DNA of 64,000 nucleotides from Rhodothermales bacterium. Lineage in GTDB: Bacteria > Bacteroidota > Rhodothermia > Rhodothermales > Bin80. The stretch spans positions 2,352,196 through 2,416,195 of the forward strand of contig OZ244626.1 of NCBI GenBank assembly GCA_965218495.1. Reading direction: 5' to 3'. Positions 13,939 to 63,383 of the stretch are shown piece after piece; positions within the stretch are counted from its first letter, which is position 1; each line of letters begins with the position of its first letter. The position numbers and the translations under genes are program-made. The notes beneath the pieces were generated by a model. It made no database searches. It was not told the DNA's origin and saw only the letters and a list, made by a program, of their open reading frames with translations.

Positions 13939-14659
13939 CGCCGGCGCCAGGAACCGCGTCGTGGCAAAGGGTGGGCTGCCCTCTTCTCTTCGGGCAGAAG
14001 ACGGTGCGCATCACCTTGAGTTCGCACACCGACTCGCGCAATAAATCCCTCCAATGCCGCTTGATGTGAGATATTGTCGCGACCCTGCCGTCGGCATTGG
14101 TGGCAGCAGGGGCACTGGCCTGATGATGACCGGCAGCGCAGCGGCGCAACTGCCGAGCGGGCACACCGTGGCAGTAAGCAGATAGCCGCTCAAAGCCCGG
14201 AGTTGAGGACCGCCAGGGACGTGGACATGCTGCCCAGGCTAGTCGGTGGTGCGTGCCACCACGTGGATAGAAAAGATCAGATTGCTGTGTCGCTGCAAAG
14301 CGGCCCGCTTTCAAGCCAGGAAGGTGAGTATCGTCCTTGTTGTTCATGAGGAAGTCAGCGTCATCGCCCCCGTAGCAAAGGGAGGCATTGCGCATTCCTG
14401 CGAATGGGAACCTTCGAGCAGCTCAAGCCCGAATATTAGGACGAATTGGCAACTATGGCCAGAATCAGCCTTTCAACCCTTTTCAGTATTTTTGAATGGG
14501 CTGATCCGAATGGCGGCATGGCCTTTCGGCCGTAAGGCTGCAACTTTTCTGATCATTCGTTGTGAAACTTCCATAGAATGGCTTACCGGGCACGGCTATC
14601 CTGGGGCAGCGCCCGTAACCCTACCCGACCGGCGTCTACCCCACCTGTGCACTTGCATC
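13939..14659. repeat. Spacer repeat S3, homologous to S4. It contains a heavily decayed TonB_C gene copy plus the leader of paralog 4.
   Basis: It aligns by eye along its whole length with 15482-16121 plus 19960-20038. Plus-strand relics are DMLPRLVGG and AFKPGR. The promoter-like motif is at 14534-14550. Confidence 0.7.
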
Positions 14660-15481
14660 ATGACTCGACGCAAAGATCCCGTGCTCACTGGCGCCTCGAA
14701 GGCAAATTTCCGCCCGTACTTCCTGTTGCCAGTCGCCGCCGCCCTGGTCTGTATCCTGGCCATTGAAACAGGGTGTGATAGCCTTGGAATCGCCAAAGCC
14801 CAGGTGCTTAGCACGCAGAAAGGGGACTCGCTAGTCTATTTGGCCGTGCAGGAGATGCCTCAGCCTATCGGCGGCCTTAGCGCGGTGGCAAGCCAGATCA
14901 AGATTCCTGACACGGCTCGTAAGGAAGGCGTTGAAGGAAAAGTATTCGTAGACATTGTCGTTGACGCGCAGGGAAACGTGTCCGATGCCAAAGTATTACG
15001 TGGGCTCGGGGCAGGTCTTGACGAAGAAATTCTGCGCGTGGTGTTACAGGCCAAGTTCACGCCAGGCCGTCAGGATGGAAAAGCGGTAAAGGTCCGGATG
15101 ACTCTCCCGATATTGTTCAAGCTCAGCGAGTCAAGTGAGCCAGCAGAACCGTCGGATAGCGGTGCTGGAGACGCAGCCCCGCAGGAATTTCGCTTTGTGG
15201 ACCAGAAGCCGGAACTAGTCGGTGGCGCTCGTCAAATACAAGCCCTTATCCATTACCCGGAGAGCGCAAGAAAGGCTCGCATTCAAGGAGATGTGATCGT
15301 CACGTTCGAGGTAGATGAACAAGGCAATGTCGTGAATCCTAAAATTGCGCAGGGCATTGGTGGTGGGTGTGACGAGGAAGCCTTGCGCGTGGTAAGCTTG
15401 GCTAAGTTCGTCCCTGGACAGGACAAAGGAATGCCGGTCAGAACTAGTATGCGAATAACAATTAAGTTTAAGCTCAAATAG
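14660..15481 (+). CDS. Lipoprotein with two tandem TonB_C domains, paralog 4
   Basis: I placed the start at the in-frame ATG at 14660 within track ORF 14246-15481, by homology with paralogs 3 and 5. The N-terminus is MTRRKDPVLTGASKANFRPYFLLPVAAALVCILAIETGCDSLG, followed by two TonB_C units. Confidence 0.85.
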   Translation: MTRRKDPVLTGASKANFRPYFLLPVAAALVCILAIETGCDSLGIAKAQVLSTQKGDSLVYLAVQEMPQPIGGLSAVASQIKIPDTARKEGVEGKVFVDIVVDAQGNVSDAKVLRGLGAGLDEEILRVVLQAKFTPGRQDGKAVKVRMTLPILFKLSESSEPAEPSDSGAGDAAPQEFRFVDQKPELVGGARQIQALIHYPESARKARIQGDVIVTFEVDEQGNVVNPKIAQGIGGGCDEEALRVVSLAKFVPGQDKGMPVRTSMRITIKFKLK

Positions 15482-16121
15482 CGCCGGCACCAGGAACCGC
15501 ATCGTGGCAAAGGGTGGGCTGCCCTCTTCGCTTTGGGCAGCAGAAGGCGCCCATCACCTTGAGTACGCGCAGCGACTCGCGCAAGAAATCCCTCCACTGC
15601 CGCTTGATGCATATTATTGTCGCGACCCTGCCGTTGGAACTATTGGGAGCAGGATGCACGGGCTTCATGATGATCGGCAGCGCGGCGACACAACTGCCGA
15701 GCGTGTACGCGGTGGCGGTAGGCAGATAGCCGCTCAAGGCCGGGAGTTGAGAACCCCGCCAGGGACGTTGACATGCTGTACAGGATAGTCGGTGGCGGGC
15801 CCTACCATATGGGTAGAAAAGATCAGATAGCCGTGTCGCTGCAAAGCGGCCCGCTTTCAAGCCGAGGTGAGGATCACCCTTGCTGTCGATGAGAAAGTCA
15901 GCGTCAACGGCCCGTAGCTATGGGAGGCATTGGGCATTCCTGCGAATGGGAACTCTCGCACAGCTTAGGTCGGATGTTAGGACGAATTGGCAACAATGGC
16001 CAAATTGAGCCTTTCGACCCAGTTCGGTATTTTTGAATGCGCTGAACCGAATGGCGGCATGGCCTTTTGGCCGTAAGGCTGTAACTTTTCTGATCATTCG
16101 TTATAAAACTTCCATAGAATA
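15482..16121. repeat. Spacer repeat S4 (homolog of S3), truncated by the IS insertion at 16121/16122
   Basis: Collinear with 13939-14580. It resumes after the IS at 19960 (gcttaccgggcgcggctatcc..., compare ggcttaccgggcacggctatcc in S3). Confidence 0.7.
16115..16121. repeat. Target-site duplication TAGAATA (left copy) of the IS at 16122-19952
   Basis: TAGAATA immediately flanks both IS ends (16115-16121 and 19953-19959). The uninterrupted homologous site in S3 reads ccatagaatggcttacc. Confidence 0.75.
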
Positions 16122-16362
16122 GTGATTGCCCGAAAAAGGCCTATTGGGAGCAATTTGCGGGCAGATTGTGGGTGGGCGGTAAGCCTGTAGTCGCGGTCAG
16201 GGGTGTGCGCAAGGCGCGCAGCCCCCGAATATGAGTGGATTTGGCACAAAGCCGCGGCCTTCAGCCAGCTTTTCATGCCATTGCACTACAAACACGATAT
16301 AGGTTTGCGCTCTCCCCATTGCAAGGAGTCTGGCTTGCTCCGGTGGCGGCGCTGGTAGGGCC

Positions 16363-16851
16363 CTATTGCGCCCTACTGCGAGTCTGGCGCCACTTTCGTC
16401 GGCGCGCTTCCTTCTGCTTCAGAACCTGACCTATGCGGTGCACATTGGTGGCCACCACTACCAGTGCCAGCGTCCTGTCGAAGCCGGCCTTGCCGTGGGT
16501 GCGCACTAGTGACATGCCCCGGTGATGGAGGTTATTGATCGCCGACTCTACGGCCGGGTGTTGACGCCGGGCTGCCACGAAGTCCAGATGGGTCTCCCGT
16601 TCGCGGTCCGCTTTACGGTGCCGCCCCTTCCGGGGCATCACGTTCAGGTCCAACAACTTGTCAAGCTGCTCGCGATTCTCTGGCGTGTAAAACCCCTTGT
16701 CCATACTGCATGATGCCAGCGCCGGATAGCGCCGCTTCGCCTCTGCAAGGAACGGCACGATCATGTCCTGGTCACCGCCTTCGTGTTGCACGTAGTGGCG
16801 CAGAATGAATTGATGCTGATCCTCCAGCACGCAGACCGGTACCCCAGCACG
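16363..16851 (-). CDS. IS transposase, 3' exon (downstream of the group II intron)
   Basis: This is the in-frame part of track ORF 16363-16968, from RAGVPVCVLEDQHQFILRHYVQHEGGDQD... to the stop. It joins in frame to exon 1 at ...KGKAGVMAEL|RAGVPVCVLEDQ. Confidence 0.7.
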   Translation of the reverse strand, partial: RAGVPVCVLEDQHQFILRHYVQHEGGDQDMIVPFLAEAKRRYPALASCSMDKGFYTPENREQLDKLLDLNVMPRKGRHRKADRERETHLDFVAARRQHPAVESAINNLHHRGMSLVRTHGKAGFDRTLALVVVATNVHRIGQVLKQKEARRRKWRQTRSRAQ

Positions 16852-18768
16852 GTAGGGACCCGAGTCTCCCCGAGCCCCCCGTACAGATCCGGACGTGCGC
16901 GCTAACGCATCCGGCTCCTCCCTCGGGTTGCGCTGGCGCGCGTGACGGTAAACCGTGCATCCGGCCATGGGTGTCGAATTGCAAGCTTCGGCCAGTAAGT
17001 CGCAGTGAGCATGTCCATATCTTTCCGCGACGTACGATCCCTCTGAGATCGCCGCCGCAGGACGCGCATCCAGATCCAGTGGAGCCGCCTACAACAGCGC
17101 TGGAGGTAGGGGAAACTCGTCGGTACGGCATAGTAGTTCAGTCAACCATTAAGCACCTGCCCCAACCATTGGCCCGTTTCACGCACCTTTCGGTGCCTTC
17201 GCCGGATCAATTGCTCCTTCACCCGCTTCAGAAAGCGGACCATCCGTTTGGCAATCGGTTTACGACCCAAGCCAAAGCGTCCTTTTCGAGTTCTACGGCA
17301 ATAATGCGTGAAACCCAAGAAATCGAACGTCTCTGGTCGGCCTTCACCTCGTCTCTTGCGGTCTTCCTCGGCGAGACGCCCAAATGCTAACAGGCGTGTT
17401 TTGCCAGGATGCAAACTCAGCCCAAACTTCTCGAGTCGAGCTTGCAGTTCACGCATGAAACGCGTTGCCTCCCTTCTGTACTGGAAACACACCACGAAAT
17501 CGTCCGCATAGCGGACGATGTATACCTCCCCCTCACACCGACGTGATTGGCGCCACTTCTGAACCCACAGGTCTAGCACGTAATGGAGATAGATGTTGGC
17601 CAGAATCGGGGAGATGACCGCGCCTTGCGGCGTGCCCACTTCGCTGTCCTGCCGTACACCCTCTACCATCACTCCCGCATTCAACCATTTAATGATCAGC
17701 CGTATCACGCGCTTATCCCCGATACGATGCTCCAAGAAGCGGATTAACCACCCCTGGTCTACCGTGTCAAAGAACTTGCGTATGTCGGCGTCCACAGTGT
17801 AGTTGACCTTGCGACGCTCAATCACAAAGGCCAAGGCGTCCAGCGCGTTGTGCGCGCTGCGCTTCGGCCTGAACCCATAACTGAAACCGCGAAACTCCGC
17901 CTCGTAAATCGGCGTCAGGATGCATTTCACCACGGCCATCTGGACGATCTTGTCCTCCAATGCTGCAATGCCGAGCGGTCGTGTACCGCCGTCCGGCTTG
18001 GGTATCTCTACCCGCCTGGACGGGGTCGCCCGATACGCACCGCTATGTACGCGCCGGCAAAGATCTGCCAGACGGACTTCCAGTCCTTCCGCGTACGCCT
18101 TCCACGTCATGCCGTCCACGCCGGGGGCTGCATCGCGCTTAAGCGCGAGGAAAGCCGTCTGGAGTGACTCTACATTGATGTGGTGCAGTAGCGTCGTGAG
18201 ACGTTCCTGTGAGTTTCGCTTCACGAACTCCCGTAACCGCTCAGTCCCCTGGGACACGCGCGCCCATTTCTGCGCATGGTGCGTGTGAGGACCTCGCGGT
18301 TTCCCCTTGGGTGATCCCCTTCGCTCCCGCCACTCCGCCGGAGCGTTCGCTCCTTTGTTCGCAGCGCTCATCGCTCGTATGGGATCATCTGACTTCTTCA
18401 ACTCGTGCATCTCCGGTTACGGCGCAAGCGCCTTTCCTTTGCGGCCCCGCACGACCGCGGGGCGAGTTGAAGACCTCCCAGGTCCCAGCAGGATATGTAC
18501 ATGCGTCCATGGGTCCCGGACACCGTGGGCCTGTCCGCCGTCTCACCATAGCGATGACGAACATGTTGCCTTCGACCGAGCTGAAAGCCTCGGCGACCCA
18601 GATTACATGTTTTTCGGTGCTCAATAACCCTGGCCACACGCACCGCTACCGACGCTTCGCGCCCACCCTCACGGGTGGCCACGCACGGCTCGCGGAGATA
18701 TGTACCTGGTTTCAGTTTCATAACACGGGACTTTCACCCGCTATATCCGGCCAGTTAGCCTGGCGCAC
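16852..18768 (-). mobile_element. Bacterial group II intron (1917 nt) inserted in the IS transposase gene
   Basis: The minus strand starts GTGCGCC at 18768. A domain V-like sequence GAGCCGGATGCGTTAGCGCGCACGTCCGGATC lies near 16885-16920. The intron ends ...GGGTCCCTAC at 16852 and encodes an RT/maturase. Removing it restores the transposase frame. Confidence 0.8.
17142..18410 (-). CDS. Group II intron reverse transcriptase/maturase, ending at a premature TGA (probably a pseudogene)
   Basis: 422-aa ORF with RT motifs (GTPQGAVISPILANIYL, VRYADDFVVCF). It stops at ...GQVLNG*, and the same frame continues LNYYAVPTSFPYL... to a TAG at 16902-16904. The TGA therefore replaces the conserved Trp of the G-W-x-N-Y-Y maturase motif. 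Confidence 0.85.
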   Translation of the reverse strand: MHELKKSDDPIRAMSAANKGANAPAEWRERRGSPKGKPRGPHTHHAQKWARVSQGTERLREFVKRNSQERLTTLLHHINVESLQTAFLALKRDAAPGVDGMTWKAYAEGLEVRLADLCRRVHSGAYRATPSRRVEIPKPDGGTRPLGIAALEDKIVQMAVVKCILTPIYEAEFRGFSYGFRPKRSAHNALDALAFVIERRKVNYTVDADIRKFFDTVDQGWLIRFLEHRIGDKRVIRLIIKWLNAGVMVEGVRQDSEVGTPQGAVISPILANIYLHYVLDLWVQKWRQSRRCEGEVYIVRYADDFVVCFQYRREATRFMRELQARLEKFGLSLHPGKTRLLAFGRLAEEDRKRRGEGRPETFDFLGFTHYCRRTRKGRFGLGRKPIAKRMVRFLKRVKEQLIRRRHRKVRETGQWLGQVLNG

Positions 18769-19710
18769 CAACTCTGCCATCACGCCCGCTTTCCCTTTGT
18801 TGATCCAGCGCGTGTGGGGCTCGTGCACGGAGAAAAGCTTCTGGCCGTGCGGAATCTTCTCGCCCTGGATCAAACGGCGCGACACCTGGTCTATCAGTTG
18901 CTCTCCAGTCCGCAAATACCACGACACCTCCGCGCTTTCAACATCGTTTTGCCTCAATATCGCCTGCGTGGCCGCTGCCTTCGACACGATAGTGCGGCAA
19001 AGTGCCAGGTAGTTTGCCACTTTCGACATGCTGCGCCACTGCCGGGAAGTGCGCACGCGATAAAAGGCGCGCTCCATTTTCTTGATCCAGGCCTGCGACT
19101 TGCACCAGCCCGCTATCGCATGCTTTTGGCACAGACGTGCCAGCTTCCTGATCAGACGGCGCAGCGCATCCCACAGCAAACGTGCATCGGTGGGCCACTC
19201 CACATGGGTCTTTGCAACCGCTGAGTCGGCCCGGCAGTGAAGCGGATCCGATGACCTGTGCTTCAACAGCTGATGCCCACGGGCCACCACCACCGCATTG
19301 ATCTGCCGCAGCGCTTCCTCGGTAAGCAGACTCACGTTGTCAATAACGGTCTGCAGGCGATACTGGTGCTTATCTCCAAAATCTGCATGCCCCAGCATCT
19401 GGCGCAGCGCCGTGTGAAAGTTCGCCAATTCCACCAGACGGTCGAAGTCGCAGTCAAGCGCCTTCTGCAGCGTGCCCAGCACGAAGATCCGCCACAGACA
19501 CAGCCCGGGGCAACCACGCCGCAAATTGACCTTCGCGCCTAACTGCTCCCGCAGAATCGCGAACACCCGCTCGCGGGTCTCGCGGTGCGTGAAGATGTCC
19601 TGCAGTCCACGGAGCACGGCCGGAATATCGTCTCTGGACCGAGCGTCAAAGCTGATCTCTCCAATGGGCGTGTGCCCAAGCTCAAACTGTGGCTCAAAGA
19701 TCGCGCGCAT
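18769..19710 (-). CDS. IS transposase, 5' exon (upstream of the group II intron)
   Basis: This is the first 314 codons of track ORF 18718-19710, ending ...FSVHEPHTRWINKGKAGVMAEL. The remaining 16 codons of that ORF are intron read-through. Confidence 0.7.
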
Positions 19711-19952
19711 GGCAGTAAATCGGGCGAATGTTGGGGCAGAAGCGTACTAATCACGCCAATAACGGTACTAAGATCGGAAAACGGCGCAACATTCGCTAAA
19801 ACAACGCAGGCAGCCGTTGGGGAAACTGCCCCGAAAACAGCCGCTCGACACTCCAAAATGCCCGATTTTCCGCCGCACGCGCCCGTACATCCGCCCTATG
19901 CGCCCAAGACTGCCGGTCTGCAGAGCCGATCAGGCATTTTTCGGGCAAGCAC

Positions 19953-19959
19953 TAGAATA
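19953..19959. repeat. Target-site duplication TAGAATA (right copy)
   Basis: See 16115-16121. Confidence 0.75.
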
Positions 19960-20038
19960 GCTTACCGGGCGCGGCTATCCTGAGGCAGCGCCCGTAACCC
20001 TACCCGACCGGCGTCAACCCCACCTGTGCACTTGCATC

Positions 20039-20884
20039 ATGACTCGACGCAAAGATCCCGTGCTCACTGGCGCCTCGAAGGCAAATTTCCGCCCGTACTT
20101 CCTGTTGTCGGTCGTCGCCGCCCTGGTCTGTATCCTGGCCCTTGAAACTGGGTGCGGTAGCCTTGGAATCGCCGAAACCCAGGTGCTCAGCATGCAGAAA
20201 GGGGACTCGCTAGTCTATTTGGCCGTGGAGGAGCTGCCTCAGCCTATCGGCGGCCTGGGCGCGCTGGCAGGCCAAATCAAGATTCCTGATACGGCATGGG
20301 AGGCTGGCGTTGAAGGAAAAGTGTTACTGGACATTGTCGTTGACCAGCAGGGCAACGTGTCCGATGCCAAAGTATCACTTGGGCTCGGGGCAGGGCTTGA
20401 CGCAGAAGCCCTACGGGTGGTGTTACAGGCCTAGTTCACGCCTGGCCGTCAGGATGGAAAAGCAGTCAAGGTCCGGATGACTCTCCCGATACCGTTCAAG
20501 CTCAGCGAGTCAAGTGAGCCAGCAGAACCGTCGGATAGCGGAGCTGGTGACGCAGCCCCGCAGGAATTTCGCATACTTGACCAGCTGCCAAGACTAGTTG
20601 GTGGCCTCCGCGCACTGTCTCGCCAAATCAATTACCCGGAAAGCGCACGAAGGGCTGGCACTGAAGGGGAGGTACTTGTCTCATTCGTCGTAGACGAGCA
20701 AGGCAATGTCGTGAATCCTAAGATTGAGCAGGGCATTGGCGGTGGGTGTGACGAGGAAGCACTGCGTGTAATACGCTTGGCTAGGTTCATTCCTGGACAA
20801 CAAAAGGATGGTGTGCCGGTAAAGGTTAGAATTGCTATCCCGATCCAGTTTAAGCTTGGGCGCGGATATGGGCTCCGTTTCTAA
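20039..20884 (+). pseudogene. Dual TonB_C lipoprotein paralog 5, with an in-frame TAG and separated from its upstream motif by the IS
   Basis: Track ORFs 20039-20434 and 20477-20884 share one frame. The TAG at 20432-20434 sits where paralogs 3 and 4 have AAG (caggccTAGttcacgcc versus caggccAAGttcacgcc in paralog 4; LQA*FTPGRQDGKAVKV). Confidence 0.8.
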
Positions 20885-62804: not shown

Positions 62805-63188
62805 TAGCGGGGGCAGGATTCGAACCTGCGACCTTCGGGTTATGCGTACCACTACAGCTTTCGCTGCCGGCCTACGACCGTTTGTGGTCTGGACTTTCTC
62901 TTCACCCTCGGCCAAGCCGTTAGGGTGCCTGCCATCAAGTCTCTACACCTTCCCTGGCGTATCGCCAAGGCTTGGCTCGGGATCACCCCGCCAAAGGCTT
63001 CCCCGAATTTGACAGGAGTTCACGCGAGAGTTTCCCCATCGCGCAGCCCATTGCAGACCTCAGGGCCAAAACACGAGAGCCGCGGCGGACCTGCTCCCAC
63101 ATTTGCGACCAGCCGCCATCCTGGCAGATGAGCGCGAACCCTGACCTGCAGCTTGAGCCCGATGAGCTACCTGCTGCTCCACCCCGCG
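62805..63188 (-). tRNA. Initiator tRNA-Met (anticodon CAU) interrupted by a group I intron
   Basis: Exon 1 is 63188-63156, CGCGGGGTGGAGCAGCAGGTAGCTCATCGGGCT. Exon 2 is 62844-62805, CATAACCCGAAGGTCGCAGGTTCGAATCCTGCCCCCGCTA. Joined, they give a full cloverleaf with a C1xU72 mismatch, A11:U24 and three G-C pairs at the anticodon stem end. Confidence 0.85.
62845..63155 (-). ncRNA. Group I intron (IC3-like, 311 nt, no ORF) between U33 and C34 of tRNA-fMet
   Basis: U precedes the 5' splice site and the intron ends in G. The intron contains GUCAAAUUCGG, CCGAGCCAAGC, GAAGGUGUAGAGACU, CCCUAACG, AGAAAGUCC and GCAGCGAAAGCUG. I recognise these from the Azoarcus tRNA-Ile and cyanobacterial tRNA-Leu/fMet introns. 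Confidence 0.8.
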
Positions 63189-63383
63189 AAGTCTGGTCCT
63201 AATCTACGGGAAACGAGGGATAAGTTGCAAACCCTGTTTCCGCATTTGTTGAACCTTTCGCGAAGTCTCTCCCGTTGGCACACAGTCCACCACAATTAGT
63301 TCAACGCTTGCGATTGCCTGCATGCGACTCAGGCGGGCTACTGCGTCCTTCTAAATTCCACTAACAATTATCGTCCAAGACCA

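Follow-up and report, generated by a model that had tools for sequence, protein, structure and literature searches.

An insertion sequence (IS) of the ISNCY family very probably transposed into one of the spacers within a tandem array of TonB_C genes in the 64,000-nt window (i.e., the whole stretch of DNA that was analysed), after which a group II intron homed into its transposase gene and most likely silenced this copy. The three-level nesting of an intron in a transposase gene, within an IS that itself occupies an array spacer, had been proposed in a first-pass annotation of the DNA and is confirmed here.

The IS extends from 16122 to 19952, with its transposase on the minus strand, and measures 3831 bp, or 1908 bp without the intron. 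It is flanked by a left and a right copy (16115..16121 and 19953..19959) of the 7-bp target-site duplication TAGAATA. Its 27-bp terminal inverted repeats, located at the transposase 3′ end (16122..16148; GTGATTGCCCGAAAAAGGCC...) and the transposase 5′ end (19926..19952; reverse complement GTGCTTGCCCGAAAAATGCC...), are imperfect and match at 22 of 27 positions, while a repeat search gives 23 nt at 91%. The GTGMTTGCCCGAAAAA ends are common to 13 complete copies in the genome (12 besides the window copy), so that the length, span, repeats and duplication recorded in the first annotation hold and are not chance matches. The other copies have their own 6-bp TANNTN duplications at different sites, as opposed to the 7 bp of the window copy, and 10 intron-less copies with the same ends measured 1906–1908 bp each.

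The transposases of these intron-less copies matched the NF033593 profile with 410–414 bits (cut-off of 325), and in the window copy profile positions 1–300 correspond to exon 1 (247.9 bits) and 301–444 to exon 2 (134.6 bits), in agreement with the earlier assignment to ISNCY. Exon 2 additionally gave a weak DDE_Tnp_1 match (19.8 bits). Among the ISfinder subgroups of ISNCY, the ISPlu15 group is presumably a poor fit to a 1.9-kb IS with inverted repeats and 6–7-bp duplications, and the ISDol1-like elements would fit better. A search of a plasmid collection with the IS returned a sole match, which was 36% identical and unannotated. The nearest relative of the window IS differs from it at 43 of 1908 positions, and the transposase substitutions private to the window copy (7 synonymous and 5 non-synonymous) reveal no clear decay.

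With regard to the insertion site, the IS starts 30 bp past position 16091 of a conserved spacer motif and ends 86 bp before the ATG (20039) of the fifth TonB_C paralog; both distances were re-measured and agree with those first given. The paralogous spacer without insertion reads CCATAGAATGGCTTACC, and empty sites were found in a sister-species genome (G001), whose spacers run contiguous across the insertion point, as well as in the uninterrupted spacers of the window itself. The paralog directly downstream of the IS (20039..20884, plus strand) is broken by an in-frame TAG at approximately 20435, where paralog 4 has AAG. Separately, inspection by eye revealed in the window a tRNA-fMet that is interrupted by a group I intron; ARAGORN reported no tRNA there.

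The transposase gene consists of exon 1 (18769..19710; codons 1–314) and exon 2 (16363..16845; 160 codons and the stop), separated by the intron (16846..18768), all on the minus strand. As noted before, the split follows codon 314 and the intron opens with GTGCGCC at 18768, its GUGCG at 18768–18764 fitting the GUGYG start conserved in group II introns. Its 3′ end, previously placed at ...CUAC (16852) for an intron of 1917 nt, had to be moved by 6 nt to 16846 (...CUACCGUGCU), since CGTGCT is absent from the intron-less copies but present in a sibling intron at genome position 1.868 Mb; the intron is thus 1923 nt long and runs from GUGCG to CCGUGCU. Moreover, the identity between both introns extends exactly as far as GTGCG at the 5′ end and CCGTGCT at the 3′ end. 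The deduced ligated junction (18769/16845) reads ...GCAGAGTTG/GGGGTACC..., and conceptual ligation yields a protein of 474 aa (...KGKAGVMAEL/GVPVCVLEDQ...), the MAEL/GVPV join of which recurs exactly in the 10 intron-less copies of this genome and in 10 copies of the Rhodothermales MAG OZ253559.1. Comparison with intron-less copies thereby upheld the original split point and frame but not the original 3′ end: since both 3′ ends are in frame, the conclusion that splicing restores a single frame survives the 6-nt error, whereas the product of about 476 aa with MAEL/RAGVPV does not. By our reading, the intron divides the putative catalytic residues, with the first Asp encoded in exon 1 and both the second Asp and the Glu in exon 2.

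The intron RNA is IIB-like and complete. An Rfam search identified the domain D1–D4 core at 18511..18734 (minus strand; RF02005, 159.4 bits vs. a gathering score of 49), with the match covering the full model (positions 1–225). The domain V-like hairpin mentioned in the first annotation indeed folds, although the RF00029 (D5/D6) match of 35.5 bits (E=1.7e-4) remained below the gathering score of 40. Specifically, the minimum-free-energy fold shows domain V (16885..16918, minus strand) as a hairpin of 34 nt that has a bulge of 2 nt and the AGC triad, and domain VI (16846..16884, minus strand) with a bulged UA and the branch-point A 8 nt from the 3′ end, so that both domains fold as expected. 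The latter distance is obtained only with the 3′ end at 16846, as a 3′ end at 16852 would leave the branch-point A 1 nt from the splice site. Comparison with the copy at 1.222 Mb also reveals a compensatory change in the basal helix of domain VI, from A-U to G-C. In domain V, the triad G stands opposite an A where a G-U pair is present in most group II introns, and this G-A is found in all intron subfamilies of the genome, i.e., it is family-wide and evidently compatible with spread. Finally, a C-run near 18514 is one C short, the base being present in all 10 aligned relatives from all subfamilies.

Exon recognition could be followed on the minus strand as well. EBS1 (CAGCUC, 18583–18578) and the EBS2 core (CAU, 18609–18607), both in the D1–D4 core, face IBS1 (GAGUUG, 18774–18769) at the end of exon 1 and the IBS2 core (AUG, 18780–18778) within exon 1, respectively. 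EBS1 pairs with IBS1 including one G-U, and the IBS2 pairing amounts to only about 3 bp at the window site, making the exon pairing weaker than at the site of the sibling. Across four intron subfamilies, EBS1 and EBS2 co-vary with the flanking exons.

The intron carries a reverse transcriptase/maturase frame (16902..18410, minus strand; TIGR04416) with RVT_1 and GIIM domains, in which a domain profile search found no endonuclease domain. The protein ends after 422 codons at an in-frame TGA (17142–17144), a TGG-to-TGA change that removes most of the maturase domain, while the frame past this codon runs on to a TAG (16902–16904) in the domain V loop; the TIGR04416 match of 367 bits is reached only with the TGA read through. 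The best matches among solved structures, which assign no class, were the 7uim-series reverse transcriptase/maturase (E=1e-51) and the GsI-IIC RT (6ar1; 5e-46). W423 to stop is the sole protein difference from the sibling, and 15 of the 17 intron-encoded proteins above cut-off are without an internal stop. A programmed or recoded TGA was considered and rejected as unsupported: the other TGA-bearing intron protein has an R-to-stop change elsewhere, and the sibling has TGG. As far as its assembled sequence tells, the window intron is not autonomous, and since its maturase in cis is truncated, any splicing here would need maturase in trans.

The sibling, 99.8% identical to the window intron and with an intact protein, is hosted next to an upstream 311-aa ORF that had no Pfam match. 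It belongs to approximately 63 related introns in the genome, 37 of which are ORF-less (ca. 670 nt), and a search of 24 genomes from the same bacterial family recovered this intron family in 16. An intron at the very same codon is also present in four other ISNCY copies, which represent two IS subfamilies. The 668-nt ORF-less introns differ by 0–5 nt, and the two IS copies of the window subfamily that host them by 85 nt; such near-identical introns in diverged hosts suggest independent, recent homing events. Some introns end in ...CCGGTGT before GCCAGGCATGG, and a twintron reading of these ends was discarded: the same downstream exon follows GAU or UGU, indicating 3′-end variation.

We propose that an ISNCY-family IS transposed into the TonB_C spacer, creating the 7-bp duplication, and that a mobile group II intron abundant in this genome would later have retrohomed into the transposase gene, at what appears to be the preferred site of its family (between transposase profile positions 300 and 301). 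Since the intron lies in sense orientation, it would in principle be excisable from the transposase mRNA, and its splicing could in principle restore the 474-aa transposase. Both splicing and further mobility would, however, need to be complemented in trans by the identical protein of the sibling at 1.868 Mb or by other intact intron-encoded proteins. The net effect would most likely be an IS copy that is silenced, with low or absent transposase output, rather than finely regulated, by analogy with the block that the RmInt1 intron imposes on a transposase (PMC3035460).

The idea that intron splicing layers control of one mobile element over another has already been published for RmInt1 in ISRm2011-2 (PMC3035460), and was also raised for the present locus in the first-pass annotation. 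The sense orientation and the frame restored upon excision are compatible with efficient splicing that tunes transposase output, as are the presence of every ribozyme domain, the identical maturase available in trans, and the near-identical ORF-less relatives that were clearly mobilised in trans. Nevertheless, the maturase in cis is truncated and group II maturases generally work best on their own encoding RNA, while the intron-bearing IS is without near-identical siblings, as opposed to an intron-less IS clone of five copies that are 0–1 nt apart. Exon ligation moreover proceeds at only about 0.07% in the only measured precedent, RmInt1 in ISRm2011-2, where the intron blocks the transposase (PMC3035460). 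Regulated control via splicing thus appears optimistic, and we consider it unlikely.

Another reading takes the TGA and the 1-nt deletion for assembly errors, which would leave the intron intact and fully autonomous. This is a single-contig MAG-like genome with long-read MAGs as relatives, and the missing C indeed lies within a homopolymer run. The TGA, on the other hand, stems from a G-to-A substitution rather than a homopolymer indel, and an independent CGA-to-TGA nonsense change in another intron protein of the genome implies that real decay of copies occurs here, which renders such errors very unlikely as an explanation. The order of events could also be reversed, with the intron already residing in the IS before insertion into the TonB_C array and the 3.8-kb composite moving as a unit. 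That introns may hitch-hike on mobile DNA has been suggested before, the target duplication is perfect, and the locus gives no direct order of the two events. Yet only 3 of 1923 positions separate the intron from its sibling (99.84% identity), whereas every other IS copy is at least 2.2% different from the window IS, and a genome search found no second IS copy carrying the full-length window-type intron. Such a joint move, which would also have required either a trans-supplied transposase or splicing, is therefore distinctly unlikely, and we favor later homing of the intron into a resident IS.

The unspliced mRNA would encode a product of 330 aa (exon 1 plus 16 intron codons) that retains the N-terminal portion with the putative first catalytic Asp, without the second Asp and the Glu. 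There is a slim chance that this product binds IS ends and inhibits the ca. 13 intact copies of the same IS in a trans-dominant manner. If so, the intron family would slow ISNCY transposition throughout the genome, and the amount of full-length transposase would be set by a few "driver" maturases.

While a single locus of this kind is by itself ordinary, it constitutes a clean and well-bounded case of group II intron homing with a transposase gene as the target. This arrangement is known, and no report was found for the present phylum and IS family: a literature search combining group II introns with Rhodothermales yielded, as only joint mention, a wide-ranging phylogeny of ribosomal proteins that names each of the two a single time. 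IStrons, in which a group I intron is combined with an IS605-type element (PMC4227781), likewise physically join a ribozyme and an IS. There, however, the ribozyme flanks the IS and the whole element splices from host transcripts, whereas here a group II intron breaks the transposase gene of the IS itself, and identity with an IStron was dismissed on account of this different architecture.

The locus more closely resembles RmInt1 of Sinorhizobium meliloti, which homes naturally in the ISRm2011-2 transposase gene (PMC3035460, PMC4615759). Both introns naturally home, in sense orientation, to the transposase gene of an IS, encode reverse transcriptase and maturase domains in the absence of an endonuclease domain, occur in many copies per genome, and are proposed to block the transposase. 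They differ in host IS (ISNCY here vs. an IS630/IS3-superfamily element there) and in bacterial lineage (Rhodothermales vs. Alphaproteobacteria), and also in the nonsense codon in the maturase and the dozens of ORF-less derivatives that are seen in the present genome.

At the genome level, the TeI3/TeI4 introns of Thermosynechococcus elongatus, with their trans-acting "driver" intron proteins (Mohr, Ghanem and Lambowitz 2010, PMC2882425), offer a parallel. Both genomes hold many closely related introns, mostly ORF-less deletion derivatives, in subfamilies with diverged exon-binding sites that match their own flanks, and splicing and mobility depend on a few "driver" proteins there and presumably also here. 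The present genome belongs to another phylum, its recurrent homing sites are two ISNCY subfamilies, and its approximately 63 copies (37 ORF-less) compare with 28 (17 ORF-less) in Thermosynechococcus. With an intron load above that of Thermosynechococcus and a presence in 16 of 24 genomes, this lineage could serve as a second natural system in which to study both the proliferation of ORF-less introns on shared maturases and the restraint of insertion sequences by introns.

The insertion sequence (IS; 3831 bp, 16122–19952, transposase on the minus strand) was flanked by TAGAATA duplications (16115–16121 and 19953–19959, plus-strand reading) exactly where the first-pass annotation had placed them. 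Searching the 4.61-Mb single-contig genome to which the window belongs (G000, contig C1) retrieved 10 complete intron-less copies (each 1906–1908 bp), two copies with a 668-nt intron, and several fragments, and the ends GTGMTTGCCCGAAAAA...TTTTTCGGGCAATCAC were common to all IS copies. The terminal inverted repeats, described earlier as ca. 27 bp, were present but imperfect, agreeing at 22 of 27 positions. Since the base preceding GTG, where variable, reappeared after the opposite IS end when these copies were compared, the duplication measures 6 bp (TANNTN) in other copies versus 7 bp here. The paralogous spacer at 14430–14728, which is uninterrupted and reads CCATAGAATGGCTTACC, aligned at 93% with the rejoined IS flanks, right through the junction. 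Because the same TonB_C array in a sister-species genome has contiguous, IS-free spacers, the insertion is, as judged by this comparison, lineage-specific. Both distances claimed for the IS also held, i.e., it begins 30 bp past position 16091 of the spacer motif (which recurs at 14534–14562) and lies 86 bp from the ATG at 20039.

The TonB_C paralog directly downstream of the IS (20039–20884, plus strand) has an in-frame TAG at ~20435, where paralog 4 has AAG, which leaves two ORFs (131 and 135 aa); the gene, severed from the region upstream of it, may be decaying, or an assembly error could account for the stop. Elsewhere, a further IS copy (G000:C1:2897073–2904921) was split by a ~5.9-kb insertion with a 9-bp overlap (IS positions 366–374), which suggests that another element inserted into it. 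Short IS derivatives in two Rhodothermales MAGs (OZ253559.1 and CATQHT010000002.1), in which positions 1–387 of the exon 1 part are joined to the exon 2 part from ~242, look like internally deleted, non-autonomous copies.

Reading of both strands of 15900–20200 yielded three minus-strand ORFs of 330 aa (18718–19710, transposase exon 1 side), 422 aa (17142–18410, group II reverse transcriptase/maturase), and 201 aa (16363–16968, transposase exon 2 side). The outer ORFs are two halves of one ISNCY transposase, as first assigned, with exon 1 covering positions 1–300 and exon 2 positions 301–444 of the NF033593 profile, without overlap or gap. The middle ORF matched RVT_1 (E=2.4e-36), GIIM (weakly), and TIGR04416 (367 bits with the TGA read through; cut-off 300), while domain profile searches found no endonuclease domain in the intron-encoded protein. 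Covariance models for both intron ends supported a group II intron: RF02005 (group-II-D1D4-6) matched over its full length at 18511–18734 on the minus strand (159.4 bits; Rfam gathering score 49), and the D5/D6 model RF00029 matched at 16847–16919 (35.5 bits, E=1.7e-4, permissive filters), which is below the Rfam gathering score of 40 and above the 24-bit threshold of a published genome survey (PMC8919778). Separately, an initiator tRNA-Met gene at 62805–63190 (minus strand) has its anticodon loop interrupted by a group I intron (RF00028, 61 bits), and was missed by ARAGORN run on the window.

The intron 5′ end (...GAGTTG/GTGCGCC, with intron base 1 at 18768) agreed with the earlier proposal, but the 3′ splice site had been set 6 nt too early (16852). 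The six bases thereby assigned to exon 2 (CGTGCT) are missing from all 10 intron-less copies in the same genome, whose exon join reads ...GGCAGAGTTG/GGCGTACCGG..., and are included in a near-identical sibling intron at a different host site (genome 1867878–1869801), which is identical through ...CCCTACCGTGCT and diverges directly after. Ten more intron-less copies (nine loci of MAG OZ253559.1) are unbroken across the junction if the intron spans 16846–18768, and every intron-less copy translates as KGKAGVMAEL/GVPVCVLEDQ. The intron therefore occupies 16846–18768 on the minus strand and measures 1923 nt instead of 1917 nt, with a spliced transposase of 474 aa instead of ~476 aa; since 6 nt equal two codons, the conclusion that splicing restores a single frame survives. 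In a fold of the last 80 nt, domain V comprises 34 nt with a 2-nt bulge, and in domain VI a UA bulges out, placing the A 8 nt away from the 3′ end as corrected; under the former boundary this branch A would sit 1 nt from the splice site. In a copy at 1.222 Mb, an A-U pair of the domain VI basal helix is replaced by G-C, a compensatory change. Domain V (16885–16918, minus strand) is identical in all subfamilies, the G of its AGC catalytic triad facing an A (G-A, not the usual G-U), and the last three intron bases differ among copies (GAU, UGU, GCU).

Target recognition was examined by aligning the 5′-terminal 300 nt of introns representing the subfamilies in this genome, together with their 5′ flanks. 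A hairpin loop (EBS1) co-varied with the final exon bases (IBS1) across subfamilies, i.e., CAGCUC with GAGYUG in the window intron's subfamily, CCUCU with AGAGG, CCGUA with UACGG, and CACA with UGUG. A second site co-varied alike (CAU/AUG, GAC/GUC, GCU/AGC, AUC/GAU), so that at least four subfamilies have EBS1/EBS2 co-varying with their insertion sites. In the window intron, EBS1 (18583–18578) pairs with IBS1 (18774–18769) with one G-U pair, and the EBS2 core (18609–18607) with AUG at 18780–18778; the sibling's site (GAGCUG and ACAUG) pairs better than that of the window.

The 422-aa ORF stops at a TGA (17142–17144), past which the frame stays open for 79 further codons until a TAG located in the loop of domain V, the 502-aa read-through product being a complete maturase match. 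Over its 1923 nt, the intron departs from the sibling, whose maturase is intact, at only three places: a C-run near 18514 is one C short, a C/T change is synonymous, and a G-to-A change turns TGG into TGA. The sole protein-level difference is thus W423 to stop, and the maturase is, on this comparison, broken in this copy as assembled. Genome-wide, 17 intron proteins scored over the TIGR04416 cut-off, 15 of them without internal stop and two, including the window copy, with a single TGA. The second case (G000:C1:3104585–3105673, minus strand; intact sibling at 4147288–4148376) belongs to a 507-aa lineage. Its TGA replaces an R, and since it falls at a different codon nothing suggests recoding, a reading set aside as unsupported.

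Sequence identity between the window intron and its sibling is 99.84%, while 43 of 1908 positions separate the IS from its nearest relative; five intron-less copies forming a separate IS clone are 0–1 nt apart. The simplest reading of these divergences is that the intron arrived in an IS that already occupied this position or had at least diverged by then.

From IS4/IS5-type DDE motifs, we take the catalytic residues to be the Asp of RADSAV (exon 1), and the Asp of SMDKGF and Glu of AVESAI (exon 2, weakly matched by DDE_Tnp_1). The intron would then separate the putative first catalytic Asp from the putative second Asp and the Glu. By its ORF, unspliced mRNA would encode a 330-aa truncated product; full-length transposase would need splicing, and splicing of the window copy would need maturase from elsewhere. 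The RmInt1 precedent in ISRm2011-2 gave ~0.07% exon ligation in vivo, and the authors concluded that introns of this type may keep their host IS from spreading (PMC3035460); in Thermosynechococcus, ORF-less introns have been shown to use 'driver' proteins acting in trans (PMC2882425). Given this low ligation and the need for a trans-acting maturase, with the 'driver' precedent, the window IS copy would most likely be effectively silenced, with rare splicing possible. The earlier proposal that transposase output depends on splicing stands as far as the dependence goes, but regulated, efficient splicing of this copy is the less likely reading, the truncated maturase and the RmInt1 yield favouring silencing.

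RF02005 gave 68 matches above gathering score in the genome (63 of them >100 bits), and BLAST with the window intron's ends found 63 related 5′ ends (example introns at G000:C1:1250514–1251181, 2615385–2616052, and 3474228–3474895). Among these 63, 37 are ORF-less (~670 nt), with full-length positions ~650–1830 deleted. Since the 12 668-nt copies of the window intron's subfamily differ mutually by 0–5 nt, whereas the two same-subfamily IS copies hosting 668-nt introns differ by 85 nt, these sequences point to recent homing events that were independent of one another and relied on trans-acting proteins. Beyond the window copy, the same codon is interrupted by an intron in four ISNCY copies, two of the same IS subfamily (~1.250 and 1.296 Mb) and two (1.219 and 2.615 Mb) of a second subfamily with ~78% identity around the site. 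In one second-subfamily copy (G000:C1:1218452–1224159), an insertion of 4.4 kb occupies the intron site; a 5′ intron part lies at 1219349, and an intron 3′ end at ~1221818 abuts a full-length intron (1221819–1223742) with an intact protein gene; the two introns appear tandem or nested. Across 40 relatives, with up to 19 candidates scored per genome, the IS-intron junction as a joined sequence occurred, among the matches listed, in the window's own genome only, and the intron half alone matched in at least 16 of 24 same-family genomes, often many times per genome. Fork-dependent retrohoming is known for endonuclease-less introns, and 52 of the 63 introns share the direction of replication-fork movement deduced from GC skew; this bias fits such retrohoming, but carries little weight given clustered copies and unequal inferred replichores.

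An intron in an IS transposase gene is a published arrangement, as is the idea linked to it; the points to retain from this locus are the corrected splice site, the maturase nonsense codon, and the intron family size in this Rhodothermales lineage. With ~63 introns in 4.6 Mb, this family is larger than that of Thermosynechococcus elongatus (28 copies).
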